64,000 bases of DNA, taken from an uncultured Gammaproteobacteria bacterium (lineage in GTDB: Bacteria > Patescibacteriota > Microgenomatia > Levybacterales > UBA12049). Position 1 is the first letter of the stretch. Every line of letters starts with the position of its first letter. The notes under the pieces are model-generated. The model was not told the origin of the DNA and made no database searches. It worked only from the letters and a program-made list of their open reading frames with translations. Both the position numbers and the translations under genes were made by a program. Shown here one piece after another: positions 1 to 46,018 of the stretch. Location: contig CAYYSJ010000002.1 of the NCBI GenBank assembly GCA_964474445.1, forward strand, positions 53,610-117,609, written 5' to 3'.

Positions 1-487
1 AAAACATTGTGATAAATGCGGTCAGTAATGGATCAACAACATAAAAATGAGCTGTTTGAATTGGTAATGTAGAAAGTCCATAGAGTGCACATCCTAACAG
101 CGCAATATTGGAAGAAAACATTCTTTTTCCCAGTAAGTAAATAAAAAGAATTGTTATGACTTCTGCAAAAATGGAGATATATCTTCCAACAAAACTCATG
201 CCACTATAGAGTCCAAGATCTGGAGACCATACTGAAGCAATGCTACTAATACTTTTTAAGAGATAAAGAGGGAAAGACCCATATGCAAAAAAATGTGGGT
301 TGAAAGAACTCATTGGAGAGAAAAATTCTGATAAAGAATGAGGGAGGCTAATTGGTTGAGAAAAGAGAATAATTGCTCTTTCATCAGGGTGAAGATGAAA
401 GTTTGCGTCCCAATTCATGCCATAAAACCTTATGCAAAAAGAAAAGAAAAGAATAAAGGCAAGTAGTATTCTGGCAATATATTTCAT
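1..487 (-). CDS. GT-C fold glycosyltransferase (PMT/ArnT-like, GT39/GT83-type). This is the N-terminal part; the C-terminus lies beyond the window edge. Not in the ORF table because it is truncated.
   Basis: The reverse-strand translation from ATG at 487 reads MKYIARILLAFILFFSFCIRFYGMNWDANFHLHPDERAII.., polytopic membrane. The N-terminus and the HPDE motif parallel the adjacent paralog at 484..2091. Confidence 0.55.
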   Translation of the reverse strand, partial: MKYIARILLAFILFFSFCIRFYGMNWDANFHLHPDERAIILFSQPISLPHSLSEFFSPMSSFNPHFFAYGSFPLYLLKSISSIASVWSPDLGLYSGMSFVGRYISIFAEVITILFIYLLGKRMFSSNIALLGCALYGLSTLPIQTAHFYVVDPLLTAFITMF

Positions 488-2091: not shown

Positions 2092-2147
2092 TATTTCATA
2101 ATTTCACTATCTCATTACCAAAAAATAACAATGGGACAATGTCGAAA

Positions 2148-5090: not shown

Positions 5091-5726
5091 TTATGCTTTA
5101 AAATATGTTTTCCCTCGTATTTGCATTCTGAATGTTGTGTCTATCTTACCCACATGGGTAATACTTATTGTTTCAAGGGTGATAAGTCTATTCAAGTTGG
5201 CAAGATTGGTGACATATTTGATCAAATTTGCATAATCTCCTTGTATTTCAATAGAAAATTCATACGTTGTATATTTTGCAGCAGCAGTTTTTTGCGTGAT
5301 ATCAACTGGAAGCGTCTGGACACGGGTTAGCTGTACATTAGAAGTTCCAGCAAGAGTATGAATTTGTCCCATGAATATGTCAATTGATAAATTGGTTGGA
5401 ATTGCATCATAAAGGGGTGGCAATGTGTTTTGTAGATTAGAATAAAGCTGCTGAAGCGTAGTGAGATTAGCTATTTTTTTTTGCAAGCTTTGATGAGTAA
5501 AATTGTCATCGTCTAACTGTTTTTGCAAATCAGCAATAGTACCTAATGTTGGGTTAATTGCAAAAAGACCAAAAAAGGCGATAGTGAGAAGGGTCAGAGT
5601 AAGTGTTGTAAACTGTTTAGCTCGTTTCTCTTTCATACCAGGAATAATTGAAAGGAATAATTTGCTTTCTTTTGGGTTACCAATGCCAAGATTTTTTATA
5701 CTGGGTAAAGATATTTTCAGATTCAT
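5091..5726 (-). CDS. PilO-like type IV pilus assembly protein
   Basis: A single TM helix (TLTLTLLTIAFFGLFAI) followed by a coiled-coil (IADLQKQLDDDN..LQQLYSNLQ) and an alpha/beta C-terminal domain. Adjacent to the PilN-like gene with ATGA overlap. Confidence 0.45.
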   Translation of the reverse strand: MNLKISLPSIKNLGIGNPKESKLFLSIIPGMKEKRAKQFTTLTLTLLTIAFFGLFAINPTLGTIADLQKQLDDDNFTHQSLQKKIANLTTLQQLYSNLQNTLPPLYDAIPTNLSIDIFMGQIHTLAGTSNVQLTRVQTLPVDITQKTAAAKYTTYEFSIEIQGDYANLIKYVTNLANLNRLITLETISITHVGKIDTTFRMQIRGKTYFKA

Positions 5727-6746: not shown

Positions 6747-8405
6747 ATGGTAAAGAATTTCTTTCAAAAAAGCCTTTCTATCCTCTTCAAACAGCAAACA
6801 AATATCCTTTCTGCGGCCTTCATTATCATGGCAACGGTTATTCTCTCCCAATTTTTAGGTCTTATTAGACAGCGTTTCTTAGTAGGTATTTTTGGTGCAT
6901 CTAATACCCTTGGAGTTTATTTAGCATCGTCTCGTTTACCTGACTTTCTATTTCAACTCATTATCGCTGGAGCATTGTCGAGTGCCTTTATCCCTGTTTT
7001 TTCTGATTATCTTGCTCGAGGAAAAGAGAAGGAAGGGCATGAATTTGCCTCAACGCTCCTTGCCCTTGGTCTTGGTATCTTTTTTGTTATTTCTCTTATT
7101 CTTTTTGTGTTTGCTGAATATTTTTCCTATCTTGTTGCTCCCGGCTTTAGCCATTCCCAGCTTACTCTTATGGCTAACCTCATGCGAGTTATTATCGTTG
7201 GGGAAATGTTTTTTATTATTGCAAGTTTCCTTTCAGCAATTCTTCAATCATACAGTCATTTTTTTATTCCAGGGATTGCTGCTGCTTTATATAATTTAGG
7301 AATTATTCTTGGTATCGTGACATTGTGGCCATGGCTTGGAATTTATGCTCCAGCAGTTGGTGTTATCGTAGGTGCTCTTATTTTTGTACTTCTCCAGATA
7401 CCACTGGTGAGAAGTGTTGGATTTCGTTTTCATCCAACATCTTTAAAAAATGTGAGCGGTATAAAAGAAGTCTTTCATCTTATGTGGCCACGAACTATCT
7501 CTTTGGGAATTTTTCAAATAGGGACATTGCTTACTGTCACGCTTATTTCATTTTTATCAGACCCTGGAAGAAGTTATGTGATTTTTGATTATGCTCAAAC
7601 CTTAGCATTTGCGCCTGTTGCTCTCTTTGGTCAGACTATTGCTCAGGCTGCATTCCCGGTCCTTTCCAGACAGAGGGAGAAGCTAGATGATTTTAAGGTA
7701 ACATTTTTAACAAGTCTTTCACAAATGCTCTATCTTGTTTTGCCAATCTCCATTTTATTCTTAGTGCTTCGTATTCCAATCGTTCGTCTTGTTTACGGTG
7801 CATCACAGTTTGACTGGCCTGCGACGGTCATGACAGGAAGAATTTTGGCACTTTTTACTATTTCACTTTTTGCACAAGCGCTAACCTATCTTGTTTCTCG
7901 AGCCTTTTATGCATTACATGACACTGTCATCCCTCTTGTTGTTGGTGCTGTCTCAACAGCTGTTATGCTTGGGATTGCTGCAATTATGGTCTTTGGGCTG
8001 CATGCTGGCATATCAAGCATTGCCATCTCATATTCCTTTGGGAGTATTTTTCAATTTATTGTGTTGTTTGTATTACTTTCCTATAAAACAGGAGGCTTTG
8101 AAAGGTCATATCTATTCTTTTCATTTTCAAAAATTATTATCGCAACCTTTTTCACCGGATTTGCTCTCTATATTCCTCTCAAACTCTTAGATCAGCTTGT
8201 TTTTGATACAACTCACACCATTAACCTTATTCTTCTGACTGGTATTACCAGTCTTATTGGATTATCACTCTACCTTTTCCTCACATGGATTTTTCAAGTA
8301 AAAGAAGCACAAACCTATGTTGTTATGTTTAAGAGTCTTGGAAATTGGAAAGAAATTCTTACTAAAATTCAGGAGCTTCTCGAAGGGACCAGTCCAAAAG
8401 TGTAA
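6747..8405 (+). CDS. murJ: Lipid II flippase MurJ/MviN
   Basis: 552 aa, 14 TM-type protein. N-terminus LSAAFIIMATVILSQFLGLIRQRFLVGIFGAS..YLASSRLPDF is typical of MurJ. Confidence 0.85.
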   Translation: MVKNFFQKSLSILFKQQTNILSAAFIIMATVILSQFLGLIRQRFLVGIFGASNTLGVYLASSRLPDFLFQLIIAGALSSAFIPVFSDYLARGKEKEGHEFASTLLALGLGIFFVISLILFVFAEYFSYLVAPGFSHSQLTLMANLMRVIIVGEMFFIIASFLSAILQSYSHFFIPGIAAALYNLGIILGIVTLWPWLGIYAPAVGVIVGALIFVLLQIPLVRSVGFRFHPTSLKNVSGIKEVFHLMWPRTISLGIFQIGTLLTVTLISFLSDPGRSYVIFDYAQTLAFAPVALFGQTIAQAAFPVLSRQREKLDDFKVTFLTSLSQMLYLVLPISILFLVLRIPIVRLVYGASQFDWPATVMTGRILALFTISLFAQALTYLVSRAFYALHDTVIPLVVGAVSTAVMLGIAAIMVFGLHAGISSIAISYSFGSIFQFIVLFVLLSYKTGGFERSYLFFSFSKIIIATFFTGFALYIPLKLLDQLVFDTTHTINLILLTGITSLIGLSLYLFLTWIFQVKEAQTYVVMFKSLGNWKEILTKIQELLEGTSPKV

Positions 8406-17332: not shown

Positions 17333-18475
17333 ATGAAATTATATCCTTTTATTGCATTCCTACTCCTTTTTCTCCTTCTTCCATTTTCTGTTTTTGCTGC
17401 TGATCAGCAAACAGTTATTCTTTCTAAGAATGAAACAGTAAATCATGATTATTTTGCTACAGGAGGAAGTGTTGATATTGCAGGAACAGTCAATGGTGAT
17501 GTCTATGCTGGAGGAGGTAATGTGTTAATTGATGGGACAGTGAATGGTGATGTCCTTGCTGCAGGTGGACAAGTAACAGTAAGGGGAACTGTTCAGAATA
17601 TACGAGTAGCCGGAGGACAAATTGTTATTGACGGCAAGGTCAATGGAAATGTGACTGCTCTTGGAGGGAACATAACGACAACAGACACATCCACTATTAG
17701 CGGAGGCCTTGTTGGTGCAGGGGGACAATATAATTTACTTGGGCCTGTTGGTAAAACCGTCTCCATTGCATCTGGTCAAATAACTCTTGGAAGTATGATC
17801 GGAAGCGATGTCTGGCTGAATAGTCAAACTATTATCCTTACTCCCCAGGCAAAAGTAAATGGAAATGTTTCTTATGTCAGTCCACAGAATGCCCAGATCG
17901 CAAATGGTGCTATTATCAGTGGAAAAGTAAGTCACTCTTTTCCTCCTCAAAAACAGGAAAGACATGCGCGTGGTCTTATTGCAGCACTGGCAGGGCTTCG
18001 AATAGGTGTATCTATCGTGAGCTTTTTAGTAAGTCTTGTCTTTGGACTTTTATTGTTTCTCCTGATTCCTGTATATTCTGAAAGGATAACAGAACATATT
18101 TCACGCCATCCCTGGCAATCACTTCTTGTAGGAATTGTTGGTTGGGTACTCACACCTCTCGCCATTATTCTCCTTACAATAACACTTATTGGTATTCCAT
18201 TTGCAGTGGTTGTAGGCATTGCGATAGGTATCCTTTCCTATATTGGAAAAATCCTTGCGGCGGTTGTTATTGGACAATGGATAGTAGCACGGTTTGATAA
18301 ACGGAAAAATAATATTGTTGCACTCTTGGTTGGACTAATCGCAGTTGAGATAGTTGGACTTATTCCTGTCCTGGGTTGGTTATTTGCGTTTATCGTTGCA
18401 GCCATCGGATTTGGTGCAGTACTTTTTATGGAGAGAATATACTATACAGAATTTCGAGCGAAAAAACTCATTTAA
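17333..18475 (+). CDS. Signal-peptide protein with bactofilin-like beta-helical repeats and a C-terminal multi-TM domain
   Basis: MKLYPFIAFLLLFLLLPFSVFA-AD signal peptide, then repeated (G)TVNGDV.. / AGG.V.I.G.VNGNV motifs, then 4 or more TM helices. Start taken at the second ATG because the TGCTATAAT -10 box ends 2 nt before the first ATG. Confidence 0.5.
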   Translation: MKLYPFIAFLLLFLLLPFSVFAADQQTVILSKNETVNHDYFATGGSVDIAGTVNGDVYAGGGNVLIDGTVNGDVLAAGGQVTVRGTVQNIRVAGGQIVIDGKVNGNVTALGGNITTTDTSTISGGLVGAGGQYNLLGPVGKTVSIASGQITLGSMIGSDVWLNSQTIILTPQAKVNGNVSYVSPQNAQIANGAIISGKVSHSFPPQKQERHARGLIAALAGLRIGVSIVSFLVSLVFGLLLFLLIPVYSERITEHISRHPWQSLLVGIVGWVLTPLAIILLTITLIGIPFAVVVGIAIGILSYIGKILAAVVIGQWIVARFDKRKNNIVALLVGLIAVEIVGLIPVLGWLFAFIVAAIGFGAVLFMERIYYTEFRAKKLI

Positions 18476-19571
18476 CAATTTGTTCCCAGGGAAATCCTTT
18501 TCGTCCAAAGTGGCCATACGCAGCAGTCTTTTTATATAGAGGTTTTCGTAAATCAAGTCGTTTAAGAATACCACTTACAGATGTGTCTAAAAGTTCTTTC
18601 ATAAAATGTTTGATAACCTTGTCGCTCTTTTTAGCAGTTCCAAACGTCTCGATGTCTTGCATAACAGGATGTTTGACTCCAATACAGTAAGCAAGTCTCA
18701 CCTCACATTTTTCAGCCAACTTATGGGCAACGATATTTTTTGCTAAAAACCGTGCAGCATATGCTGCAGACCTATCTACTTTTGTTGGGTCTTTTCCAGA
18801 AAAGGCACCACCACCAATTCGTGCATAGCCTCCATATGTGTCAACAACAATTTTTCTGCCAGTTACCCCAGTATCGCTTGCAGGTCCTCCAATGTGCCAT
18901 ACGCTTGTTCCATTGACAATCAGTTGGTCTTTTTTAATAGCAAATCCATATTTTTTGAGAAGTGGTGAAACTACTTTTTGGTACAAATCATGCTCTACTT
19001 CAGGAAGTGTGACTTTCTCATCATGAGGAACGGCAATAACAACTGTAGTAACTCCTATTGGTTTGCCATTGTTATACTCAACAGTTACTTGTGTTTTGCC
19101 ATCTGGTCGAAGATAAGGTATTTTTTTTGATGTTCGTGCTGTATCCAGTTTTTCAGCAAGTCGATGCGCAAGGGTGATGGGGAGAGGCATCAGCTCTGGT
19201 GTCTCGTTACAAGCAAATCCAAACATCATTCCTTGATCTCCTGCCCCTTCATTATCAACACCAACTGCTATTTCAGGAGATTGCTCATGGATATATACCT
19301 CAACAGAAGATTTATAGGTAAAACGGAAAAGAGGATTGGTATATCCCAAGTCCTTTATGACATTTCGTGCGACTTTCTCAAAGTGTACTTTTGCATTAGC
19401 TGTAACTTCTCCGGCCAACACAATTTTTTCTTCAGTCACCAATGTCTCAACAGCAACTCGTCCTTTAGAATCTTCTCTCAGTACAGCATCCACTATCGCA
19501 TCGCTGACCTGATCACAAATCTTATCAGGGTGTCCACTACAAACTGACTCTGATGTAAAAATACTGCTCAT
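18468..19571 (-). CDS. metK: S-adenosylmethionine synthetase
   Basis: MSSIFTSESVCSGHPDKICDQVSDAIVDA..GAGDQGMMFGFA..GGGAFSGKDPTKVDRSAAYAAR. Start at the internal Met, because the upstream 67 codons of the table ORF are the riboswitch leader. Confidence 0.93.
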   Translation of the reverse strand: MSSIFTSESVCSGHPDKICDQVSDAIVDAVLREDSKGRVAVETLVTEEKIVLAGEVTANAKVHFEKVARNVIKDLGYTNPLFRFTYKSSVEVYIHEQSPEIAVGVDNEGAGDQGMMFGFACNETPELMPLPITLAHRLAEKLDTARTSKKIPYLRPDGKTQVTVEYNNGKPIGVTTVVIAVPHDEKVTLPEVEHDLYQKVVSPLLKKYGFAIKKDQLIVNGTSVWHIGGPASDTGVTGRKIVVDTYGGYARIGGGAFSGKDPTKVDRSAAYAARFLAKNIVAHKLAEKCEVRLAYCIGVKHPVMQDIETFGTAKKSDKVIKHFMKELLDTSVSGILKRLDLRKPLYKKTAAYGHFGRKGFPWEQIVK

Positions 19572-19607
19572 ATGCTTAGACTCCTTTTTCGTCTTCCTTT
19601 TGATTAC

Positions 19608-19745
19608 AAAAAAACCTCTCTTTCGAGAGGTACATGTTTGTTCTACATCTGGAACCACATTTTCCTCTCGGATTCTGGGCACCGTGTCAATAAGGTCGGT
19701 TGCCGGATAGGTCTGGCCTATCTCTCTGAATGTTCTAGGATAAAG
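19608..19745 (-). ncRNA. S-box/SAM-I-like riboswitch leader with an intrinsic terminator upstream of metK
   Basis: The minus-strand RNA contains a hairpin GATAGG-CCAGA-CCTATC, then GGCAACC..(14 nt)..GGUGCC, then AAUCC and GAGAGG. The terminator is CCUCUC-GAAA-GAGAGG + U7 (plus coordinates 19608..19630). The aptamer GAGAGG can pair alternatively with the terminator strand CCUCUC. Confidence 0.5.
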
Positions 19746-19840
19746 TAAAGCAGAAATGTAAAAAGATTGCAAGAGACTAAATGAAAAATACTAAATGTGT
19801 TTCAGGTGTTAGGGAGTCGTATGCTTCACCAAAAAATATT

Positions 19841-29687: not shown

Positions 29688-30527
29688 ATGAAACGGTTGT
29701 TATTTCTTATTCTTCCAATACTACTTGCGATAGCAACATTTACCTCATTTTCTTTTATGCTTTCTCAAAGTACTTCAGGAAAAGGAGCACTGCAGGTAAC
29801 TTCAATTCCAGCAAGTAATGTCTATCTCAATGGAAAACTGGTAGGAAAGACACCTTTTTGCCAATGTGAAGGTAAAGACATGCTTGCTACTGGAGATTAT
29901 ACGTTAAAGTTAGTCCCTCTTGCGGGAGATAATCTTGATACCTACGAACAGAGGATCACTATTACAAAATCAATTCTTACAGTTGTTGATAGGACGTTTG
30001 GTGTAGGAGCTCTTTCAAGCGGATTTGTCATTAACCTTAGCCCTCTTTCAGACAATAATGCTGTACAATTGTTTATCTCCTCATTTCCTTCCGGTGCTCG
30101 TCTTAGTATTGATGGCAACGATTCAGGGCAAACACCATTGCTACTTAAAAATATCACATCATCCGACCACGATCTTGTTCTTGCAAAACCTGGATATAAA
30201 TCTAAGACTGTTCATGTTCAAACTCACCCTGGGTATCAGTTAAATGCAACTGTTTTTCTTGCTTTGCTCCCTCCTGATGCTAGTAGTGCAGCAATATTTG
30301 ATAACACAGGACTGACTCCCATACAAAAGCAAAAAGTGGTCATTTTAAATACTCCAACTGGATTTTTACGTGTGCGCTCTGACCCTTCTTTAGTAGGAAG
30401 CGAATCTGCACAAGTGAGACCTGGTGATATCTTTGAACTAGCCAGCGAACAGGATGGTTGGTATCAGATTAAACTTAAAGATGGAACGTTGGGGTGGGTT
30501 AGTGCTACCTATGCAAAGAAGCAGTAA
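29688..30527 (+). CDS. PEGA-domain protein with a C-terminal bacterial SH3 domain
   Basis: Signal/TM N-terminus. Two PEGA-like modules (VTSIPASNVYLNGKLVGKTP; ISSFPSGARLSIDGNDSGQTP). The C-terminal SH3b-like segment is FLRVRSDPSLVGSESAQVRPGDIFELASEQDGWYQIKLKDGTLGWV. Confidence 0.6.
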   Translation: MKRLLFLILPILLAIATFTSFSFMLSQSTSGKGALQVTSIPASNVYLNGKLVGKTPFCQCEGKDMLATGDYTLKLVPLAGDNLDTYEQRITITKSILTVVDRTFGVGALSSGFVINLSPLSDNNAVQLFISSFPSGARLSIDGNDSGQTPLLLKNITSSDHDLVLAKPGYKSKTVHVQTHPGYQLNATVFLALLPPDASSAAIFDNTGLTPIQKQKVVILNTPTGFLRVRSDPSLVGSESAQVRPGDIFELASEQDGWYQIKLKDGTLGWVSATYAKKQ

Positions 30528-30593: not shown

Positions 30594-31538
30594 TTATCCT
30601 CCGAGGAAATAAATGATTCCTATTACAAGCATTGCCCATGCAATGACTGTTATAAGAAGAGGAGTGTCTGATAACAGTACCTTCTCAGGGCTTTCTCCTT
30701 CATGTTTTTCGTAAATGTCCTGCAAATACCGCATGAGGCCATAGACAACAGGAATAATAGTTATCATAAGCCACTTTCTCTGAAAGGATGCTGGAAGAAA
30801 GTCAGGAAGTAGAATGTTGGCCCCTATTTTCAGTCCCCCAGGATTCTCAAAAAATGTAAAGAGTGTATAGAAAATATATGTGGATGTTGCAAAAATAGAT
30901 GCATAAACATTCAGTAAGGATTCAGAATAATGAGAAAGTGTTTTTCGGGTTGCCTCAATTTGGGTTCCTGGCATATGAGAAATAAGAGTAAGTTCAGACT
31001 TTCTTTTTCCAATAGCAAGAAAAAGTGAGAGTGCTACTGTTGTAAGAACAAGCCACACTGAAATATGGTATCCTGTTGCCAATTCTCCTGCGTAGACTCG
31101 AAGCATATATCCAGCTGCCAGAGCGAGAATATCCAACACAGTAATATTTTTCAAAAACATGGAATAGGATAACTGTAATGACAGATAGACAAGGACAAGA
31201 AAAAGAAATGTAGGGCTCAATGAGACAGCAACAATAAGAGATAATGCGATAAGAATAAGAGCAAAGATAATTGCGTAGGAAACTGAAAGATCACCATGGG
31301 CAAGTGGACGAAATCGTTTGAATGGGTGAATTCTATCTTTTTCAATATCAAAAATATCATTAACGATATAAATTGCAGAGGAGAGACCACAGAACACGAG
31401 AAACCCTAGAACACTTCTTGAAAAAAGATTTGGATCAAAGAGACGTCCTGAAAAAATGAGAGCAGCAAAGATAGCAAAGTTTTTAATCCATTGCTTTGGA
31501 CGTAAGAGTTTTAATGTTTTAAAAAGTTTTTTCTTCAT
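30594..31538 (-). CDS. UbiA-family polyprenyl-phosphate phosphoribosyltransferase-like protein (resembles decaprenyl-phosphate 5-phosphoribosyltransferase, Rv3806c-type)
   Basis: LRPKQWIKNFAIFAALI, YIVNDIFDIEKDRIHPFKRFRPLAHG (NDxxDxxxD + KRFRP), YMLRVYAG, IGKRKSEL. 8-9 TM helices. Start at the internal MKKKL. Confidence 0.75.
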   Translation of the reverse strand: MKKKLFKTLKLLRPKQWIKNFAIFAALIFSGRLFDPNLFSRSVLGFLVFCGLSSAIYIVNDIFDIEKDRIHPFKRFRPLAHGDLSVSYAIIFALILIALSLIVAVSLSPTFLFLVLVYLSLQLSYSMFLKNITVLDILALAAGYMLRVYAGELATGYHISVWLVLTTVALSLFLAIGKRKSELTLISHMPGTQIEATRKTLSHYSESLLNVYASIFATSTYIFYTLFTFFENPGGLKIGANILLPDFLPASFQRKWLMITIIPVVYGLMRYLQDIYEKHEGESPEKVLLSDTPLLITVIAWAMLVIGIIYFLGG

Positions 31539-32598
31539 CGCTTTGGAGTGTTTTATATAAAAATACCAATCCTCCACCAGCAATTGCTAAAAGCATCAAG
31601 ATTGCAAAAAGCTTTCCTGTGCTCGACAATGTCAAAGATACTGCGCCTAATATAGCAGAAACAATATAGTAAAACAAGGCAATACTCCTTTGGGAATACC
31701 CGAGGCGGAGTAGTTGGTGATGAAGATGCAAATTGTCGTGCCAAAAAGGAGATTTCCCTGAAGCAATACGTCTTGTGATAGTAAATAAACCATCTGCCAT
31801 TGGGACTCCCATGACAAGAATTGCCGTTGCCAATTTTGCTCCTGATAAGATAGCCACAACACTTAAAAGAAGATAAATAGATGTTGCACCGTAGCCAGGG
31901 AATATTTTTGCTGGATGAAAGTTATAGAGTAAAAATCCTAAGGCTGCTCCTGCAATAAGAAAAGAAAGTTTAGCGGCAAGAAGAGTGTGCGGATCTGTCC
32001 ATGAGAACCTTAAACTGAGTATTCCTATGACAATTCCTGATATTGCGACAACACCTGGCATTTGTCCATCAACTCCTTTACTCCAGTTCAACATGTTCAT
32101 TGCCCATACAACCCATAACAGTGCGAGCATGTCGGACAAAGGATAAATTGTGTGTGTCCCAAAAAAAGAAAATGTTATTTTGAGAAAATCTAAATGAATA
32201 ATGCCACCAAAGGGATTCGTGACAAATGGTATACCAATTCCTGCACTGACAACAATAAGTGCACAAAGAAAATTAATACCTAACCGGAGATATCGAGAAA
32301 TGTCATATTTATCATCCAGTGTTCCAATAACGAGTGCAAGCAAAGACGCAATAAAAATAGATATTGTTGTTCGGTCAATAGGTAAAGAAAAGAGAGCTCC
32401 TATAAAAATTCCTAAAAATAGAGCAACTCCTCCACCTCGTGGTATTGGTTTGGTATGTAACATTGCTGGATGTTTATGTGTTTTTGGATCGTCGACGTAG
32501 CCAAAACGTTTAATAATTGGGATAAGGAGTGGTGTTGCAATAGCAGTTGAAAGGAAAGCAATAGCAAGTGGAATAATAATGAAAAGAGGAAAATTCAT
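31519..32598 (-). CDS. Polyprenyl-phosphate N-acetylhexosamine-1-phosphate transferase (MraY/WecA/TagO family, GT4-type PNPT)
   Basis: IIKRFGYVDDPKTHKHPAMLHTKPIPRGGGVALFLG and the DD/DK motifs. 10-11 TM helices. 359 aa. Confidence 0.8.
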   Translation of the reverse strand: MNFPLFIIIPLAIAFLSTAIATPLLIPIIKRFGYVDDPKTHKHPAMLHTKPIPRGGGVALFLGIFIGALFSLPIDRTTISIFIASLLALVIGTLDDKYDISRYLRLGINFLCALIVVSAGIGIPFVTNPFGGIIHLDFLKITFSFFGTHTIYPLSDMLALLWVVWAMNMLNWSKGVDGQMPGVVAISGIVIGILSLRFSWTDPHTLLAAKLSFLIAGAALGFLLYNFHPAKIFPGYGATSIYLLLSVVAILSGAKLATAILVMGVPMADGLFTITRRIASGKSPFWHDNLHLHHQLLRLGYSQRSIALFYYIVSAILGAVSLTLSSTGKLFAILMLLAIAGGGLVFLYKTLQSDEEKTF

Positions 32599-32966
32599 AG
32601 AATCACCTGAAAAATTCTCATTACAAAAATTAACACAAAGAAGGCAAGCGCTGCATTTGTGACAAAAACAAATCGGGCGAGAAGAGGATTTTTTTTGAGA
32701 AACTGAGTACCTAAAAAGAGATTGCTTAGTATGAGAATAAGTGAAAGCAATATTGGGACAAAAATTTCATATGTTCTTCCAAGTCTTTGATATCCCCATG
32801 GCTCGTGGTTATAGAGAGGCAAAAAAGGAGGTAGTTGTCGATATAAGAGAGCAACTCCTGCAACGACAAAAAGAAGAAGACTAAAGCTTATGATAAAGCT
32901 CCACCATGCAACATTGTCTGATTGTAATTGTTTAATAAGTCCTTTCATAGATAATAGCATTATCAA
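32595..32966 (-). CDS. Small membrane protein (3 TM helices)
   Basis: Hydrophobic 123 aa. Translationally coupled between the GT-C and WecA-like genes. Confidence 0.35.
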   Translation of the reverse strand: MIMLLSMKGLIKQLQSDNVAWWSFIISFSLLLFVVAGVALLYRQLPPFLPLYNHEPWGYQRLGRTYEIFVPILLSLILILSNLFLGTQFLKKNPLLARFVFVTNAALAFFVLIFVMRIFQVIL

Positions 32967-34407
32967 ATGTTATTTTCATTTTGTAATGTTTTAATTGATA
33001 TGGCATATTGCCTGCATTTTGAAGAATAATAACATACTTTGGCATTGTTTGTATAAGTGCAGTTTGTGTTTCCTTTATGGTTGTTCCATTTGCTGTAATA
33101 TGGTATGCAACAGTGTATTTCCCCGGAGGAAGGCTATTCGTTAATTTATAAATCTGAGCGCTATTCCCCCAAATGAAAATTTGCTCGTTATGTTTACGAA
33201 CAGTTTGTATATATGCTGCAACATCATAATCTTGGGGGGTCTGTTGATCAAAAAAAGTTTGATATGCCTCAGTTGTTTTTTTACCAGCAGCATAGGATAG
33301 GTAATTTGCGTAATACAAAAATGTTTTATTGTAGTACCAAAAGTTTTTGGCGATAAAAAAGACGATCACAATAAGAAGAATACTATGGAGCACTTTTTGC
33401 TTTTGTTGCTGTATAAGAAGTCCAATGAATAAAGAAAAACTTGCAATGAAAACTAAAAGATAATGTGTATATGGTCGTTGTGAGAAAAGCGCACTAAAAA
33501 GAGAAAAGGAAAGCCAAATATAAACAAAAAGTTGAGTAAGGGAAAAGACTTGTTTTTTCCATAAAAGTATAAGACATAGACCTCCCAAAATAAAAATTTT
33601 TCCAAGTAACAATCCTTGAGGGATAATAAATTGGTTGCCGTAATTTACATACCCCACATTACTAAAGAAGGCTGATTGGAGAAATATTTTAAGCGCTCCA
33701 TGTGTTACAAAAAAGACAATTGTTAGAATGAGTGGAACAAAAAATGCCGAGAGAAAAACTGCGCTATAGGTAAGAGTTTGTTTGATCAATTTGGTAAAGG
33801 AATGGAGTTGAAAATAACAAACAAAAAGGAAAAACCAAAACGCTGCTATATCAAAAATAGCTACAACTTTTATGAGAAATGATATTCCTAGGGCCATTCC
33901 TGCCAGACCTACAAGGATGTAATCTTTATTTACTGTTTGTTTCTTTTGTGCAACATAAAGTATCAGTAGAGCGCTTATTAACGAAGGTAAAACCATAAAA
34001 TTTTCTGCATTTGCAATATTCCCTTCAAGAAACGGAAGTCCTAGGAGAAGTGCAAACAGGAATGTACTAGCATAGTAAGCAGTTTTTTTAGCGAAGAGTT
34101 TTTTTGCAATGAAGAAAAAGAGAAGAACAGCAAGAAGACCAACAATACAAGAAAAAATCTTAACTGGCATTTGATCTCCCTGAAACAGTGAATAGATAAG
34201 ATACAAGAAAGGTGGTTTGTTATCCCAAATGTCCCTATAGAGAAATCTCCCGTGCCGTAGTCCAAGTCCGACCACTTCATAAATTCCTTCATCACCATAC
34301 CAATACGGTTCAAAAAAAGAAGGAAGTCTTAGGAAGAAAAAAAGAATACTTGTTGATAGGACAAACCAAAAGTCGAGGGATTGCTGAAGACGAGTAAGAA
34401 GTTTCAT
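32932..34407 (-). CDS. GT-C fold glycosyltransferase (PMT_2/ArnT-like)
   Basis: 491 aa polytopic protein. The N-terminal motif FFEPYWYGDEGIYEVVGLGLRHG (DE motif) precedes about 12 TM helices. Confidence 0.6.
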   Translation of the reverse strand: MKLLTRLQQSLDFWFVLSTSILFFFLRLPSFFEPYWYGDEGIYEVVGLGLRHGRFLYRDIWDNKPPFLYLIYSLFQGDQMPVKIFSCIVGLLAVLLFFFIAKKLFAKKTAYYASTFLFALLLGLPFLEGNIANAENFMVLPSLISALLILYVAQKKQTVNKDYILVGLAGMALGISFLIKVVAIFDIAAFWFFLFVCYFQLHSFTKLIKQTLTYSAVFLSAFFVPLILTIVFFVTHGALKIFLQSAFFSNVGYVNYGNQFIIPQGLLLGKIFILGGLCLILLWKKQVFSLTQLFVYIWLSFSLFSALFSQRPYTHYLLVFIASFSLFIGLLIQQQKQKVLHSILLIVIVFFIAKNFWYYNKTFLYYANYLSYAAGKKTTEAYQTFFDQQTPQDYDVAAYIQTVRKHNEQIFIWGNSAQIYKLTNSLPPGKYTVAYHITANGTTIKETQTALIQTMPKYVIILQNAGNMPYQLKHYKMKITFDNAIIYERTY

Positions 34408-34452
34408 ATAACTGCTATTGTTATTATAACAATTATATCAGTTATAGCTAGT

Positions 34453-35946
34453 TTATATTTTCTCTGTTACTTTGTACTCAATCCGTTTACCAAGCATAAG
34501 CTGCGTATGGGAGATCAACGCTGGGAGTGTTGAAAGGAAGAATCCAGCAATGGGGAGAAGCATAAACTCAAGAGGGAATAAGAAGTACTTTATTTTTGAA
34601 ACATGTTTTGTATGTGGACGGTTTCTAAAGTCAATGCCTATCATGATCAGTGTTGAGAAAAGACAGAATGTAAGAATGAGTCCTGCAAGACTTGGTAATT
34701 TATATCCAAGAGTAGTACGGGCAAAAATAGGATTGACAAATGGAATAATATTGGCCGCAACAGTAATAATAAACCAGTTAACTGGCCAAAGAAAATGATC
34801 GAGCAATACGTGATATAACATAAGTGTTTTTCTTACAAAAGGCACACCAGGGACGGTAAACCACCATTTAATAAACAGTGGATCATCAGACACTCCCCAA
34901 GACCAACGTCTTTCTTGCTCATATTTATTCATCAAACTATTCCAATACCCATTTGAAAGAGGAGCATCCATGGAAGTTTTGAGAAAAATTGGTTCAACCC
35001 ATACTTGCCCTTGTAACTTATAAAAGGCTTTAAAGAAAATTCTATAATCTTCAGGTATCACATCAGTATCCCAAAAACCTATTTGATGAAGCATCTTTAA
35101 AGAGAGCGAGTATGTTGAGTTAGAAACAAGTCTATCCCCTTGGATAAGAAGTGCTGTTCTCCACAAGGAACCAAAGAATGACAGAATTCGGATTGGTGCT
35201 GGAACACTCCAGAAATTATTATAATTCACGTTTGCTGACTGCCAGAATTTATTAAATGGCTTTGGGTCAGTTAAAAATTTGTAAGAAAGGTATGCAAAGT
35301 ATTGTTTATCAAAAATAGAATCGGCGTCTACTGATGAAATCGTTGCGTAGTTAACATCAATTTTTTTGTTTTCAACTAACTGTTTATATGCAAGTTGTGC
35401 TCCGAAACTTTCATTGGATGACTTTCCTTTCACCTCTCCTGGAATATCAGGATGATAGCTCGCAAAAATGTCTCCAAAGACCGGTTTAAATTCTTTGATA
35501 AGGCTTTCTGCTTTTTCTTTCGCGTCGGCTTCCCGTTCTTCCATTGCTAAAACAACATAGATTCGTTTGGTTGGAAAAGTTTGATGTGCAATTGATTGAA
35601 TTGTCTCTCGTAGTTTGTGGACTCTTTCTCTATAGTTAGGAATAACTAATATATGAGTCATTTTGTTAAATTGTGGCAAAGTGTGTGTTTTTTCTAACCA
35701 GTTTTCCTTTTCCGCAGTTCGAATTTTTCCTGAGGAAATAAAAGCAGTTGTTGTAAGAGAGAGTGATTTATACAGCCAGTAGACATCAAAGAATAAAATA
35801 AAGTATGCAAGAGCAGCAGGAAAGAAAAGGCCACCCCACAGCGGAAAAAGGATAAGGGTCCAGGATAATACGCCTGGTACTAGTTCTAATGCTCTTCTTG
35901 TTTTTACAGGATATCGAGAAAAGAGTATTTGAAAAAATTTATTCAT
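34453..35946 (-). CDS. Processive family-2 glycosyltransferase (membrane-integrated synthase, cellulose/chitin/hyaluronan-synthase-like)
   Basis: ISSVDADS (DxD), QERRWSWG (the QxxRW processivity motif), and N- and C-terminal TM bundles. 497 aa. Confidence 0.7.
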   Translation of the reverse strand: MNKFFQILFSRYPVKTRRALELVPGVLSWTLILFPLWGGLFFPAALAYFILFFDVYWLYKSLSLTTTAFISSGKIRTAEKENWLEKTHTLPQFNKMTHILVIPNYRERVHKLRETIQSIAHQTFPTKRIYVVLAMEEREADAKEKAESLIKEFKPVFGDIFASYHPDIPGEVKGKSSNESFGAQLAYKQLVENKKIDVNYATISSVDADSIFDKQYFAYLSYKFLTDPKPFNKFWQSANVNYNNFWSVPAPIRILSFFGSLWRTALLIQGDRLVSNSTYSLSLKMLHQIGFWDTDVIPEDYRIFFKAFYKLQGQVWVEPIFLKTSMDAPLSNGYWNSLMNKYEQERRWSWGVSDDPLFIKWWFTVPGVPFVRKTLMLYHVLLDHFLWPVNWFIITVAANIIPFVNPIFARTTLGYKLPSLAGLILTFCLFSTLIMIGIDFRNRPHTKHVSKIKYFLFPLEFMLLPIAGFFLSTLPALISHTQLMLGKRIEYKVTEKI

Positions 35947-36011: not shown

Positions 36012-36818
36012 TTAAGAAATGTGAAATAATTTTTTGGCATTTTGCTCAGTTTGTAGATTTATTTCTTCAAACGATAAGCCTTTCACTTTTGCTAGAAATT
36101 CACCCACTATTATAACATAGCTCGGTTTATTTTGAGTTCCACGGAAAGGAATTGGGGTAAGAAACGGGCTATCTGTCTCAGTAACTATCCTCTCGAGAGG
36201 AGTTGCTTTTGCAATGTCGGCCAATGCCACTGTTTCACCAGGGGCAAGGCCTGGATAGGTACTGTTTCCATCAAATCCTATCATAAAACCCAAATCAAGT
36301 GCTCCCTTAAGAATATTCATGTCACCTGCAAAACAGTGAAACATTCCAGGATAATCACTTCTGAGTAAATTCTTGTGGTGAGTAAGAATTTCCAGAATAT
36401 CTTTTCCTGCATGACGATTATGAATTTGAAGAGGCAGGTTAAGTTTGTGAGCAAGTTCTATTTGTGCTTCAAAGAATTCTTTTTGGAGGTCTGAGTCAAC
36501 AATACCATTGGATTGATATCGATAATAATCAAGACCTATTTCTCCAATACCAACGACTTTTGGTTTTTTGGCGAGGGTTTCAAGTTCTTCAATCCAATTC
36601 GATGAAACATCTTGCTTGTCAGCATGGTGTGGATGGACACCAACAATTGCATATAAATGCTCATACTGTTGTGCTAACTCGACAGCTTTTTCGCTTGAGT
36701 CAATTTTTGTACCTGTATTAATGATGTAGGTGACTCCTTCATCATACGCTTCTTTGATAAGCTCATTATAGTTGCTCTCAAAAGCATGAAAATTTAGATG
36801 GCAATGAACATCAATCAT
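36012..36818 (-). CDS. tatD: TatD-family metal-dependent hydrolase/DNase
   Basis: MIDVHCHLNFHAF.. and GVHPHHA.. motifs. 268 aa. Confidence 0.85.
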   Translation of the reverse strand: MIDVHCHLNFHAFESNYNELIKEAYDEGVTYIINTGTKIDSSEKAVELAQQYEHLYAIVGVHPHHADKQDVSSNWIEELETLAKKPKVVGIGEIGLDYYRYQSNGIVDSDLQKEFFEAQIELAHKLNLPLQIHNRHAGKDILEILTHHKNLLRSDYPGMFHCFAGDMNILKGALDLGFMIGFDGNSTYPGLAPGETVALADIAKATPLERIVTETDSPFLTPIPFRGTQNKPSYVIIVGEFLAKVKGLSFEEINLQTEQNAKKLFHIS

Positions 36819-41841: not shown

Positions 41842-42573
41842 ATGAATGACCTAACTCAAAGACAAATTCAAATCCTCAAAAGTCTTATTGAAGAATATAT
41901 CGAAACAGCTGATCCCGTTGGCTCCGAAACTCTTGAAAAAAAGCATAATTTATCAGCAAGTCCAGCAACTATTAGAAATGAAATGGTTCGATTGACAGAC
42001 CTTGGCTATCTCAAAAAACCTCATACATCTGCGGGTCGCATTCCAACTCCTCAAGGCATGAAATTTTATGTCAAACAACTTATGAAGGAAAAAGAATTAT
42101 CAGTTGCAGAAGAAGTTGCACTGAAAGAGAGAGTGTGGGATTATCGTGAACAAGAAGCAAGATTCTTAAAAGAAGCAGTAAAATCTTTAGCTGAAAAAAC
42201 ACGAGCACTGGCTGTTGCAACCACTCAAGGAGGAGATGTCTTTGCAGCAGGATATGCAAATATTTTGGACATGCCAGAATTTTATGATATCGATATAACC
42301 AAAAATTTACTAACAGCACTTGATGAATTTGAAACTTTCCGTGCAATCTGTTCTATTCCACAAGATGAAGAAGAAATTCATGTCTTGGTTGGTGAAGATT
42401 TAGCACCAAGACTGCAAGGCCCTTACGGATTTGTTTTTACCAGGTATCACACACCGTTAAATGAAACTGGTGAAATTGGCGTCTTAGGGCCAACACGGCT
42501 TGCTTACACGTCTGTTGTACCAGTTGTCAGATATTTTGGCGATTTAATTGAAGAAATTGCCAAGGGATGGTAA
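41842..42573 (+). CDS. hrcA: Heat-inducible transcription repressor HrcA (short, 243 aa)
   Basis: LTQRQIQILKSLIEEYIETADPVGSETL..SPATIRNEMVRLTDLGYLKKPHTSAGRIPT is the HrcA winged-helix N-terminus. Confidence 0.9.
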   Translation: MNDLTQRQIQILKSLIEEYIETADPVGSETLEKKHNLSASPATIRNEMVRLTDLGYLKKPHTSAGRIPTPQGMKFYVKQLMKEKELSVAEEVALKERVWDYREQEARFLKEAVKSLAEKTRALAVATTQGGDVFAAGYANILDMPEFYDIDITKNLLTALDEFETFRAICSIPQDEEEIHVLVGEDLAPRLQGPYGFVFTRYHTPLNETGEIGVLGPTRLAYTSVVPVVRYFGDLIEEIAKGW

Positions 42574-42602
42574 GGGCAGAGCTGCAGTGCAGTTGCAGAT
42601 AG

Positions 42603-43127
42603 TTGGTAATATATGATATGGATGAAAAAAGAAGAGACAAAGAAAATCACATAGAAGAAGAGAATATTGTTGAGAGCGAAGTAAAGCATTCTCAAGAAAT
42701 TAAAACAGAGAAAAAAGAAGAAAATGATCTTTTACAAAAAGTTCAGGAATTAGAGGATAAATACAGAAGAGCCTTGGCAGACTATCAAAATCTGCAGAGA
42801 AGAACTCAGGACGAGAAACGAGAATGGGCACGATTTTCAAATAAAGATTTGATCTTGAAACTCTTGCCGATTCTCGATACACTAATGCTTGCAGAGAAGC
42901 ATACAAAAGATCAGAATTTTGTCTTGACTGTACAGCAATTCTTGCAAGCATTAGAGCAAGAAGGAGTAAAAAGAATCAAGACCATTGGTGAGGAATTTAA
43001 TCCTCATACAATGGAAGCAGTCTCAACAGCAGAAGGTGATAGAGGCAAAGTTGTTGAGGAGCTGCGAGCAGGATACATGTTGTTTGACATGGTCCTGCGA
43101 CCAGCACAAGTAATAGTTGGGGAATAA
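42603..43127 (+). CDS. grpE: Nucleotide exchange factor GrpE
   Basis: [21 protein letters not shown]...LLPILDTL..A.. GrpE signature. 174 aa. Confidence 0.9.
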
Positions 43128-43132
43128 ACATT

Positions 43133-45040
43133 ATGGCACAAAGTAAAATTATTGGTATTGATTTAGGAACAACAAATTCGTGTGTTGCAGTCATGGAAGG
43201 TGGGCAACCAAAAGTTATCCACTCTGCAGAAGGACGCAATGTCATCCCATCTGTTGTAGATCCAAAAACACACGTTGTTGGAGATGTGGCAAAGCGTCAA
43301 TTAGTTCTTAAGCCAAGAGAAACCATCTTCTCAGTCAAGCGCATCATGGGTCGAAAATATCATGATGAATCTGTTCAATATGATATTAAATGGCTTCCAT
43401 ATACCGTCAAAGCGGGGCGAGACGATATGGCAGATGTTGAAGTAGGTGGAAAAATGTATACTCCTCAGGAAATTTCAGCAATGGTGCTGCAAAAAATTAA
43501 AACTGACGCAGAGGCATATCTTGGAGATAAAGTAACCCAAGCTGTTATTACCGTTCCAGCATATTTTGATGATGCACAAAGGCAAGCAACTAAGCAAGCT
43601 GGGGAAATTGCAGGTTTGGAAGTTTTGAGAATTATCAACGAGCCAACTGCAGCAGCACTTGCTTACGGCTTGGATAAGAAGAATGCACATACCATCGCTG
43701 TCTATGATTTGGGAGGCGGAACATTTGATATTTCAATTCTCGAGCTTGGTGAAGGTGTTTATGAAGTGAAATCAACCAATGGTGATACTCACCTTGGTGG
43801 AGATGATTTTGACCAGAAGATTGTTGATTATTTAGCAGATGAATTTAAAAAGGAAAATAATATAGATCTTCGAAAAGATCCGCAAGCATTGCAAAGACTT
43901 CGAGAGTCAGCAGAAAAAGCAAAGATTGAATTGTCATCCTCTCAGGAAGCACAAATTAACCAGCCATTTATTACCGTTGGACCAAATGGGCCACTTCATT
44001 TAACAATGACCCTTACCCGAGCAAAGCTTGAGGCAATTGTTGATGATCTTATTCAAAAATCACTTGAGCCAGTAAAGAAAGCGCTTTCTGATGCAAAAAA
44101 GAGTATCTCTGATATTGATGAGGTTGTGCTGGTTGGTGGTATGACTAGAATGCCAAAAGTGATAGAGACAGTGACCAAATTCTTTGGAAAAGAGCCAAAT
44201 AAGTCAGTTAATCCAGATGAAGTAGTTGCAATTGGAGCAGCAGTACAGGGTGGTGTGTTGGCTGGAGAAGTTACAGATGTCCTCCTTTTGGATGTAACAC
44301 CTTTAACGCTTGGTCTTGAGACTTTAGGCAGTGTCAGTACACCACTTATTCAACGAAACACAACCATTCCAACCAGTAAATCTCAAGTTTTTTCAACAGC
44401 AGCAGACAATCAAACGCAAGTTGAAATCAATGTTCTGCAAGGAGAACGTCCAATGGCAGCAGACAATAAATCACTTGGAAGGTTTATTCTTGATGGTATT
44501 CCACCAGCTCCTAGAGGTGTTCCACAAGTGGAAGTGACCTTTGATATTGATGCGTCAGGAATTTTGTCTGTGAAGGCTAAAGATAAAGCATCTGGCAAAG
44601 AGCAGTCTATTAAGATTACTGGCTCAACAGGCCTTTCTAAAGATGAAGTCGAGAAAATGACCAAAGAAGCGGAGCTTCATGCAAAGGAAGATGAAGAGAA
44701 GAAGGCAAAGATAGAAGCACGAAATCATGCAGACTCTCTTATCTTTACTGCTGAAAAAGCACTGAAAGACGGTGGAGATAAAGTTCCTGCTGATGTAAAG
44801 AGTGAAGTAGAAGGTAAGATCAAAGATTTGAAAGACATTTTAGATACTGGGAGTAAAGAAGATTTGGAAGCAAAGACAAAAGATTTGTCTGAGACCCTCT
44901 CAAAGATTGGACAAGCAGCATACCAACAAGGTCAGCAAGCAACGACAGAACCTGAAGTTGAAGCAAAAGAAGAAGATGGTTCGACAGGCTCATCAAAAAG
45001 TGGTAAGGATGAGGCACAAGAAGGAGAAGTGATTAGTTAA
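43133..45040 (+). CDS. dnaK: Chaperone DnaK (Hsp70)
   Basis: [41 protein letters not shown]. 635 aa. Confidence 0.98.
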
Positions 45041-45076
45041 GATTGCGATTTAAGAATTAAGATAGAGGAATAATTG

Positions 45077-45097
45077 TGCGCGCGTGAGCGCATTTTT
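45077..45097 (+). terminator. Hairpin plus T-run between dnaK and dnaJ (partial terminator/attenuator), followed by a TATAAT box
   Basis: TGCGC-gcgtga-GCGCA followed by TTTTT, then agTATAATtagc at 45099..45106. Confidence 0.45.
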
Positions 45098-45142
45098 AGT
45101 ATAATTAGCACGTACTACAAAGGATAAGAAAGGACTAAACCT

Positions 45143-46018
45143 ATGCCGACAGCAAAAGATTATTATGAAATTATGGGAGTCTCAAAATCTGCGACAGATC
45201 AAGAGATAAAATCCGCGTATCGAAAACTTGCTTTGCAATATCATCCTGACCGCAACAAAACAAAAGAAGCAGAGGAGAAATTTAAGGAAGTTACAAAAGC
45301 ATACGAAGTATTATCGGATTCTCAAAAAAGACAAACTTACGACCAATTTGGTGCAGCAGCTTTTGAGCAAGGTGGCATGGGTGGAGGCAATCCTTTTGCT
45401 GGAGGGTTTGGCGGGCAGCAAGGACCATTTACATATACATACACAACTAATGGAGGTGGGTTTGATTTCGGTGGATTCAATGATCCTTTTGACATCTTTG
45501 AACAATTTTTCGGAGGGGCATCCCCTTTTGGTAGACAACAACGCCGTCCAATATACTCTGTTACGATAGACTTTATGGAATCTGTTAAAGGAATAACGAA
45601 AAAGGTAACGATTAATGGCAAGCAGCAATCAATTAAAATCCCAGCAGGTGTTGATAGCGGATCTCGCATTCGTTTTCAGGATTATGATGTCGTTATAGAA
45701 GTCCTCCAGCATAATCGGTATAAAAGAGAAGGATATGACATTGTGACAGATGAAGAAATCTCTTTTCCACAGGCGGCTTTGGGAACAGAGTATACAGTAG
45801 AGACTATTGATGAAAAGGTGACTGTTCGAATCCCTGCCGGTACACAACCCAATGCTCTTATCAGACTTCGTGGCAAAGGGGTACCTCATCTCCAAGGATC
45901 TGGAAGAGGGGATCACTATATGCATGTGAAAGTCGTTGTACCTAAAAATTTAACTTCTCGCCAGAAAGAGCTTCTCAAAGAGTTTGATGGGGAAAAAAGC
46001 AAAAAAGGTTGGTTTTAA
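45143..46018 (+). CDS. dnaJ: DnaJ-family co-chaperone lacking the CxxCxGxG zinc-finger domain (CbpA/type II-like)
   Basis: J-domain DYYEIMGVSKSATDQEIKSAYRKLALQYHPDRNK and a G/F-rich linker GGMGGGNPFAGGFGG. The C-terminal beta-sandwich domains are present, but no Cys-rich repeats. Confidence 0.85.
   Translation: MPTAKDYYEIMGVSKSATDQEIKSAYRKLALQYHPDRNKTKEAEEKFKEVTKAYEVLSDSQKRQTYDQFGAAAFEQGGMGGGNPFAGGFGGQQGPFTYTYTTNGGGFDFGGFNDPFDIFEQFFGGASPFGRQQRRPIYSVTIDFMESVKGITKKVTINGKQQSIKIPAGVDSGSRIRFQDYDVVIEVLQHNRYKREGYDIVTDEEISFPQAALGTEYTVETIDEKVTVRIPAGTQPNALIRLRGKGVPHLQGSGRGDHYMHVKVVVPKNLTSRQKELLKEFDGEKSKKGWF

Follow-up and report, generated by a model that had tools for sequence, protein, structure and literature searches.

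A conserved, putative envelope-glycan operon of Levybacteria with a predicted Rv3806c-type phosphoribosyltransferase

The operon and its UbiA-family protein

Five co-directional genes on the minus strand, at 30594..35946, make up a putative envelope-glycan operon in the stretch of contig CAYYSJ010000002.1 analysed here (64 kb in all, ~37% G+C; hereafter the window). From the upstream end they encode a membrane-embedded family 2 glycosyltransferase (GT2; 34453..35946, 497 aa), a glycosyltransferase of the GT-C fold (32932..34407, 491 aa), a small protein with three transmembrane (TM) helices (32595..32948, 117 aa), a phosphotransferase of the GT4/PNPT family (polyprenyl-phosphate N-acetylhexosamine-1-phosphate transferases; hereafter PNPT; 31519..32598, 359 aa) and a UbiA-family protein (30594..31538, 314 aa). 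A gap of 45 nt separates the GT2 and GT-C genes, and the other junctions are overlaps of 17 nt (GT-C/small gene), 4 nt (small gene/PNPT) and 20 nt (PNPT/UbiA). The UbiA gene begins with an ATG inside a mechanical open reading frame (ORF) that reaches 31583. The start of the small gene, which the mechanical ORF places at 32966 and the public gene call at 32960, was set by orthologue alignment at M7 of the mechanical ORF. A scan of the operon for promoters and terminators returned counts no higher than in shuffled sequence. The coordinates and the shared direction agree with the original prediction, made from the DNA letters without database searches, which had described five co-directional, partly overlapping genes for a processive GT2 synthase, a GT-C enzyme, a WecA-like phosphotransferase and a UbiA protein resembling the mycobacterial decaprenyl-phosphate phosphoribosyltransferase Rv3806c.

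The UbiA protein matched the NCBIfam models for decaprenyl-phosphate phosphoribosyltransferase (DPPR synthase) with E values of 2e-67 and 3e-67. It scored 226.9 bits against NF008978, over the curated cut-off of 207, 227.6 bits against NF008977, just under the cut-off of 234, and 175.8 bits against NF008976, below the cut-off of 474. On all other UbiA subfamily models (heme O synthase, UbiA, MenA-like, chlorophyll synthase, the archaeal-lipid GGGP/DGGGP synthases, EboC and MqnP) it reached at most 51 bits, so that the DPPR-synthase score stands ~175 bits above that of any other subfamily. The placement in the DPPR-synthase subfamily, proposed originally from sequence motifs, was thus borne out.

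Over residues 8-306 the protein aligned, full-length and at 34% identity, with Rv3806c of Mycobacterium tuberculosis (PDB 8j8j; E 1.3e-40), and all ligands of phosphoribosyl pyrophosphate (PRPP), Mg2+ and the 5'-phosphate are identical. For the experimentally proven polyprenyl-phosphate 5-phosphoribosyltransferase (PPPRS, or DPPRS) ORF15 of Citrobacter youngae the corresponding identity is 31%, a range like that between the UbiA protein and Rv3806c (PMC11127046). The four motifs of the original prediction are all present as RPKQWIKN (RPxQWxKN; residues 13-20), NDIFDIEKD (NDxxDxxxD; 60-68), HPFKRFRP (HPxKRFRP; 71-78) and GKRKSEL (GKR..EL; 177-183), and they include structurally shown PRPP-binding residues of Rv3806c. 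Residues R13, K19, Y57, N60, D64, D68, K74 and R77 correspond to R22, K28, Y70, N73, D77, D81, K87 and R90 of Rv3806c, and Q122, Y125, K130, Y144, K178, R179 and E182 to Q135, Y138, K143, Y157, K191, R192 and E195. These residues are invariant in 81 orthologues with the sole exception of Q122 (78 Q, 3 H), and N60, D61, D64 and D68 of the NDxxDxxxD motif are invariant in 143 family representatives as well.

The Mg2+/PRPP motif NDxxDxxxD comprises N73, D74, D77 and D81 in Rv3806c (PMC10994848) and N247, D248, D251 and D255 in ORF15 (PMC11127046). In the Rv3806c structure, N73 and D77 are the Mg2+ ligands, N73 and Q135 contact the ribose, K28, Y70 and Y157 contact the 5'-phosphate, and a K/R cluster of R22, K87, R90, K143 and Y138 holds the pyrophosphate (PMC10994848). 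The equivalents of the pyrophosphate cluster (R13, K74, R77, K130 and Y125) are all invariant. The phosphoribose contacts of Rv3806c are not conserved in ordinary UbiA prenyltransferases (PMC10994848), and the phosphoribose-specific ones are kept here as K19, Y57, Q122 and Y144. Across most of the wider PPPRS family, N, T or M takes the place of Q135 and F that of Y157; at both positions the Levybacterial enzyme is closer to Rv3806c than most of its relatives are.

That the gene encodes an ordinary aromatic or lipid prenyltransferase (for menaquinone, heme O or archaeal-type lipids) was one reservation attached to the original prediction, the other being that the motifs had been wrongly assigned; neither turned out to be so. 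The protein does belong to PF01040, and the Joint Genome Institute names some homologues '4-hydroxybenzoate polyprenyltransferase', but the score of at most 51 bits on all such models against 227 on the DPPR-synthase models, and the conservation of every phosphoribose-specific residue absent from prenyltransferases, effectively refute this reading. We conclude that the assignment of the UbiA protein as a PPPRS of the Rv3806c type is well supported by its sequence. NCBI already lists its public homologues as 'decaprenyl-phosphate phosphoribosyltransferase'. The PPPRS-like family as a whole comprises 2,099 clusters (50% identity, E <= 1e-30), with members on replicons of haloarchaea, Lactococcus, Bacteroidota, rhizobia and actinomycetes and in one phage record.

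Conservation of the cluster and its partner enzymes

Conservation was assessed in 80 GTDB species representatives, all Levybacteria-type, and in 80 further loci from a metagenome scan seeded with a 6-sequence alignment of more distant UbiA representatives. Neighbours were counted by profile searches in loci with enough flank only. The gene order methionyl-tRNA synthetase (MetRS), TatD, GT2, GT-C, small ORF, PNPT, UbiA and a convergent gene for a protein with PEGA and SH3 domains is essentially invariant in the 80 Levybacteria. Many loci of the metagenome scan lie on contigs of 0.7-1.4 Mb; their UbiA proteins are ~45-50% identical to that of the window, and the cluster persists. PNPT lies beside UbiA in 89/89 Levybacteria-type loci and in 45/47 loci of other lineages, and the small ORF in 87/87 and 37/47. 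GT2 is found near UbiA in 59/59 and 24/29, GT-C in 57/59 and 18/29, and the PEGA-SH3 gene in 79/80 and 29/36, respectively. In 134/136 loci PNPT is the immediate neighbour of UbiA, and in 129/139 the end of its reading frame overlaps the start of UbiA, by a median of 20 nt. The conserved core is therefore PNPT (with its small module) plus UbiA, followed by GT2 and PEGA-SH3; GT-C is frequent, not obligatory. The partnership of UbiA and GT-C foreseen from the window alone holds as co-occurrence in Levybacteria, but the tighter partner is PNPT. Two Levybacteria representatives, L028 and L067, are the only ones without GT-C in an otherwise intact operon (GT2 - small ORF - PNPT - UbiA) and amount to natural 'knock-outs'. 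Extra GT-C paralogues or a Wzy_C-type protein occur in some related loci.

Close homologues of all operon proteins are found in metagenome-assembled genomes (MAGs) of Patescibacteria, chiefly Candidatus Levybacteria/Levyibacteriota, which places the window in a Levybacterium or a near relative among the Microgenomates. Many of the GTDB records (L005, L008, L013, L019, L024 and about 30 others) are titled 'uncultured Gammaproteobacteria bacterium', and these carry the Levybacteria-type operon with proteins 60-78% identical; the titles are evidently placeholders or wrong taxonomy.

PNPT belongs to the PF00953 superfamily (E 7e-23), in which MraY, WecA, TagO and DPAGT1 share its fold and its DD, NxxNxxxGxDG and HxHH motifs; in the Levybacterial proteins DD, NxxNxxxGxDG and HLHH are invariant. 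The label 'WecA-like' thus holds at the superfamily level and fails for WecA itself: PNPT scored 98.2 bits against WecA TIGR02380 (cut-off 326.05) and 42 bits against the MraY model (cut-off 192), both far below the equivalog cut-offs. When a profile of 29 orthologues was compared with the MraY structures 5jnq, 9zno and 4j72 (E 1e-18 to 2e-20), Tyr236 fell under the Asp of the 'FMGD' motif. This Asp is D265 of MraY_AA, which binds Mg2+ and is considered essential in MraY. The position is Tyr in 88/88 Levybacterial PNPTs, and in distant cluster-linked homologues it is Tyr in 31, Phe in 11 and Asp in 5. The pattern suggests a PNPT subfamily with altered metal or donor binding. PNPT also differs from MraY and WecA in an extra N-terminal module of three TM helices, encoded by a separate gene in most genomes.

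This module is the 117-aa protein, for which three TM helices are predicted; one of its extracytoplasmic loops, LPPxxPLFNQxPWGxxRL, is conserved, and searches of Pfam and NCBIfam gave no match. Six metagenome loci encode it as an in-frame N-terminal extension of PNPT, giving products of 485-536 aa (L132 7710-9218, L137 7542-9056, L147 5563-7173, L151 8523-9980, L153 217-1704 and L163 6992-8512). The fused regions mostly cover positions 12-115 of the 117-position profile (5-111 in L147 and only 12-86 in L163) and are followed by a full PNPT. Because of these fusions we regard the 117-aa protein as a detached N-terminal module of PNPT. In Levybacteria the two parts are separate genes, and the fusions belong to another lineage. 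Five of the fused loci (all but L153) extend far enough upstream to be judged, and no GT-C was detected in their clusters. We also considered the 117-aa protein as a GtrA/SMR-type flippase and rejected this, given the absence of a family match, three rather than four TM helices, and the fusion to PNPT in six loci.

GT2 has two N-terminal and about four C-terminal TM helices, and its motifs PNYxE, KGKSSN, DAD, PED and QERRW are invariant in 73 orthologues; its identity across ~70 Levybacteria is 59-88%. Family matches were weak (Pfam GT2 and TIGR03937 PgaC), and neither single-sequence nor profile searches of the PDB matched a solved synthase by sequence. Its AlphaFold2 model (pLDDT 79) gave as best Foldseek matches in the PDB the minimal cellulose-synthase-like PcManGT, hyaluronan synthases (TM-score 0.61/0.61 to 9yq4_A), BcsA and chitin synthase, and the match spans both the TM and the GT-A parts. 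GT2 shares with hyaluronan synthase (0.61 for the Chlorella virus enzyme), BcsA and chitin synthase the fold, the topology and the D, D, D, QxxRW set, and differs from the solved enzymes in having no sequence-level match and no PilZ or accessory domains. The QxxRW motif had been correctly recognised in the original prediction. The model points to a membrane-embedded synthase of the cellulose/hyaluronan/chitin-synthase type, and the term 'processive synthase-type' suits it as a description of its fold.

GT-C gave PMT_2/PMT matches in Pfam (PMT_2: E 1e-9), and PDB searches with the single sequence or a profile returned nothing meaningful. Its AlphaFold model (pLDDT 85.7) has the GT-C fold expected for it. 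The first outside loop contains an invariant D39-E40 pair, and a small alpha/beta domain lies at the C-terminus. The nearest structures in the fold search, Pmt4 among the best matches, are users of polyprenyl-monophosphate sugars. On this model, GT-C is a candidate user of a polyprenyl-phosphate sugar donor, and its nearest structures fit a polyprenyl-phosphate-pentose donor.

The PEGA-SH3 gene (29688..30527, plus strand, 279 aa), convergent with UbiA, encodes a secreted or anchored protein with PEGA and SH3b domains; the PEGA and SH3_3 Pfam families are annotated on the identical public contig. By clustering, this convergent arrangement recurs in 132 of ~160 related loci. In many orthologues a short linker rich in S/T/P/A precedes the SH3 domain, but its enrichment is weak (median 0.43 against a background of 0.33). 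The protein is a possible acceptor or wall-associated partner.

A proposed variant of the pentofuranose pathway and its alternatives

Kelly et al. (PNAS 2024) described a pathway in which a PPPRS, a flippase and a GT-C enzyme add pentofuranose side chains outside the membrane (PMC11127046). The 5'-phosphate is removed by a phosphatase, optional epimerases turn ribofuranose into xylo- or arabinofuranose, and without an epimerase the donor is undecaprenyl-phosphate-ribofuranose (PMC11127046). The reading we favour, at a probability of about 0.6, is that the five genes form an operon for an envelope glycan, conserved in Levybacteria and in related Microgenomates with small genomes, and that this operon represents a variant of the three-component pathway in which ribofuranose is the default sugar. 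UbiA would convert PRPP and polyprenyl phosphate to polyprenyl-phosphate-ribofuranose-5-phosphate at the cytoplasmic face, a step for which the conserved active site argues well. An enzyme encoded elsewhere would remove the 5'-phosphate, and the lipid-linked pentofuranose would then be flipped across the membrane. Because no epimerase is in sight, the sugar would be ribofuranose by default, and arabino- or xylofuranose only if epimerases are encoded elsewhere in the genome. A GT-C enzyme, most simply that of the operon, though alternatively another such as the second GT-C of the window (PMT_2; 484..2091, minus strand), would move the pentofuranose onto an acceptor outside the membrane. The acceptor would probably come from other operon members (the product of PNPT and/or GT2), or might be a surface protein. 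The two-piece PNPT (117-aa module plus catalytic body) would load a sugar phosphate on polyprenyl phosphate, and the synthase-type GT2 would polymerise and export a beta-glycan. PNPT and the phosphoribosyltransferase would be translationally coupled and would probably work together, drawing on one pool of polyprenyl phosphate. In all sequence tests applied, the UbiA protein matches the enzyme that begins arabinan synthesis in M. tuberculosis; on this ground, a lipid-linked sugar donor derived from ribose very probably serves to build part of the cell surface of these minimal bacteria.

Mycobacterial ubiA adjoins aftB and glfT2 (the arabinogalactan genes Rv3805c-Rv3808c), and the UbiA gene here likewise sits with GT-C and GT2 genes. 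GT2 is a membrane synthase and not an enzyme of the GlfT2 type, and GT-C lies outside the Aft/Emb families. Unlike in mycobacteria, there is no Rv3807c-type PAP2 phosphatase, DprE1/DprE2 or Rv3789/GtrA-type protein near UbiA, and UbiA is coupled directly to a PNPT, while the mycobacterial WecA gene is not known to be linked to ubiA. The O1/O2 locus of C. youngae (ORF12-15) resembles the operon in combining a PPPRS of the same family with a GT-C. It differs in having a fused HAD phosphatase domain and a MATE flippase, both missing here, and it is of an accessory, serotype-diversifying type, whereas the present operon is a fixed core operon of the whole lineage with PNPT and a synthase GT2. In Pseudomonas aeruginosa the GT-C TfpW arabinosylates pilin together with Rv3806c/DprE1/DprE2 homologues, a non-actinobacterial precedent (cited in PMC11127046). 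There too a PPPRS feeds a GT-C; here there are no epimerases and no adjacent pilin gene, and the operon includes polymer-synthesis genes. Patescibacteria likewise have type IV pili, and PilO lies in the window (5091..5726).

Three plasmid loci gave further comparators. On Lactococcus cremoris plasmid pF27D (L164 6563-9682), an exopolysaccharide-type locus encodes in order a 462-aa hypothetical membrane protein, a PPPRS, an HAD-IB phosphatase and GtrA. The PPPRS is 33% identical to that of the window and, as here, belongs to a monoderm and a surface-polysaccharide locus; it has the adjacent phosphatase and GtrA that the present operon lacks, and the flanking membrane protein is unrelated to GT-C. 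This locus apparently represents a system for pentofuranose side chains, so far undescribed, of a food bacterium. A Chondrinema plasmid (Bacteroidota) carries PPPRS - FAD-binding oxidoreductase - short-chain dehydrogenase/reductase (SDR) - acyltransferase - GT39, and a Haloterrigena plasmid GT39 - GT-C - NAD epimerase - PPPRS - PHP-domain protein. The PPPRS genes of these plasmids have phosphatase, GtrA, epimerase or GT39 genes for neighbours, which confirms the pentofuranose pathway as the normal setting of the family.

Several observations weigh against the proposed variant. PPPRS and GT-C occur together as the three-component pathway predicts, but the operon and the 64-kb window contain neither a PAP2, HAD(-PRP) or PHP 5'-phosphatase (nor does the UbiA protein itself) nor a GtrA, SMR or MATE flippase, and clustering of the flanking ORFs of ~160 related loci gave no conserved phosphatase, flippase or epimerase candidate. 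In those flanks an HAD protein occurred in 4 loci only, and the one FAD_binding-like cluster was MurB-sized. Some steps of the pathway thus have no assigned protein. The cluster lacks GT-C in 2/59 Levybacteria-type and 11/29 other loci, so that the link is not obligatory. Its fold lies farther from the Aft/Emb enzymes than from mannosyltransferases, and its profile showed no or weak local relation to the GT-C/GT39 proteins flanking PPPRS in Lactococcus, Chondrinema and Haloterrigena, such that a shared PPPRS-associated GT-C family was not demonstrable across the three comparators. PNPT, without an Asp equivalent to D265, may not have canonical activity. Finally, the roles of PNPT and GT2 in one product are conjecture; a synthase-type GT2 needs no lipid-linked primer.

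Two enzymes of the window were considered as substitutes for missing parts. TatD (36012..36818), directly upstream of GT2 here and in about 99 loci, was set aside as the phosphatase: it scores as a standard YchF/TatD exonuclease. MetRS and TatD are a common housekeeping pair in other bacteria. The FAD oxidoreductase at 2148..3416 (minus strand) belongs to the uncharacterised PRK07233/NF005560 family (391 bits) and has, as already suspected, a different fold from DprE1, of the amine-oxidase/CrtI and not the VAO type; 27 kb away and not syntenic with the cluster, it was rejected as a DprE1 substitute.

Protein O-glycosylation is an unlikely account, in which GT-C (PMT_2/GT39-like) would put pentofuranose on Ser/Thr of PEGA-SH3 or type IV pilins and the GT2/PNPT polymer would be unrelated. 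Pfam places GT-C in protein-mannosyltransferase families, and Pmt4 is among its best structural matches; yet bacterial GT-C enzymes in general, among them ArnT-like modifiers of lipids and glycans, fall into PMT_2. PEGA-SH3 is the most conserved neighbour after PNPT and often has the S/T/P-rich linker, but the linker enrichment is weak and GT-C is dispensable in many loci that retain the PEGA gene. PilO in the window, with the TfpW precedent for arabinofuranose, fits the same account. A mycobacterial-style arabinofuranose pathway, with DprE1/DprE2-type epimerases encoded elsewhere and GT-C as an arabinofuranosyltransferase for an arabinan-like polymer, seems rather improbable to us. The active site equals that of Rv3806c even at Q122 and Y144, where most family members diverge, the set of GT2, GT-C, UbiA and a lipid-carrier priming enzyme echoes the arabinogalactan genes (Rv3805c-Rv3808c), and a Bacteroidota plasmid combines PPPRS with DprE1-like, DprE2-like and GT39 genes. 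GT-C, however, showed no sequence or closest-fold relationship to the mycobacterial arabinofuranosyltransferases (AftA-D, EmbA-C; GT53/85/87/89). Pfam annotation of the whole window revealed no DprE1-type FAD enzyme and no DprE2-type SDR, in keeping with the original prediction; it revealed no PRPP synthase either.

We also doubt, somewhat more strongly, that the genes are mere neighbours in an inherited order, with UbiA feeding a GT-C elsewhere (e.g. that at 484..2091) and PNPT as an ordinary TagO/WecA-type initiator of an unrelated wall polymer. The evidence for coupling is all synteny, and a second GT-C in the window and the extra paralogues in related loci would suit this view. Against it, the PNPT-UbiA overlap survives to ~45% UbiA identity while flanking genes change, and the small ORF/PNPT fusion shows selection on this unit. 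In none of the described systems is a PNPT coupled so tightly to UbiA. Taken with the absent phosphatase and the replacement of Asp by Tyr, this allows, on indirect grounds, for less conventional chemistry. The PNPT-PPPRS pair might use polyprenyl-phosphate-ribose-5-phosphate undephosphorylated, for example with the 5-phosphate as acceptor for sugar-phosphate transfer by PNPT, an idea we consider very unlikely. If true, such a two-enzyme route would yield a ribose-phosphate-containing lipid-linked unit or an anchor for the GT2-made polymer, and would explain an operon without 5'-phosphatase, flippase or epimerase in ~160 genomes.

Genomic setting and implications

The surroundings of the operon are housekeeping in character, with a hrcA-grpE-dnaK-dnaJ heat-shock operon (41842..46018, plus strand), PilO and MurJ (6747..8405, 22 kb from the operon), and there is no sign of a mobile element or island around it. 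At one end of the window, the second GT-C, the FAD oxidoreductase and an Ig-like/fn3 surface protein (3413..4771, minus strand) form a tight run on the minus strand (484..4771), which may be a separate lipid-linked glycosylation module. A SAM-I/IV riboswitch (19624..19738, minus strand; 47.8 bits, above the gathering score) coincides with an S-adenosylmethionine synthetase ORF (18468..19772) whose enzyme domains begin at residue 70; the riboswitch lies in the gene's leader.

The proteins are auto-named by the annotation pipeline PGAP in public MAGs, and the general pentofuranose pathway was published in 2024; both are already known. Full-text literature searches found no paper tying the PPPRS/decaprenyl-phosphoribose pathway to the candidate phyla radiation (CPR)/Patescibacteria. 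What is new is the occurrence and architecture in CPR, with a partner set unlike every described system. The analysis also flags an unusual PNPT subfamily in which a residue regarded as essential in MraY is missing. Both Rv3806c and DprE1 serve as drug targets in tuberculosis, so divergent natural variants would be useful for structure-function comparison.

CPR/Patescibacteria are ultra-small, mostly uncultured epibionts whose envelope chemistry is essentially uncharted. A lineage-fixed operon that would spend PRPP on a lipid-linked pentofuranose predicts that ribo-, arabino- or xylofuranose is added outside their membrane. It would carry the recently defined pathway of pentofuranose glycosylation into a very different group of bacteria, with another set of partners, PNPT and a synthase-type GT2.

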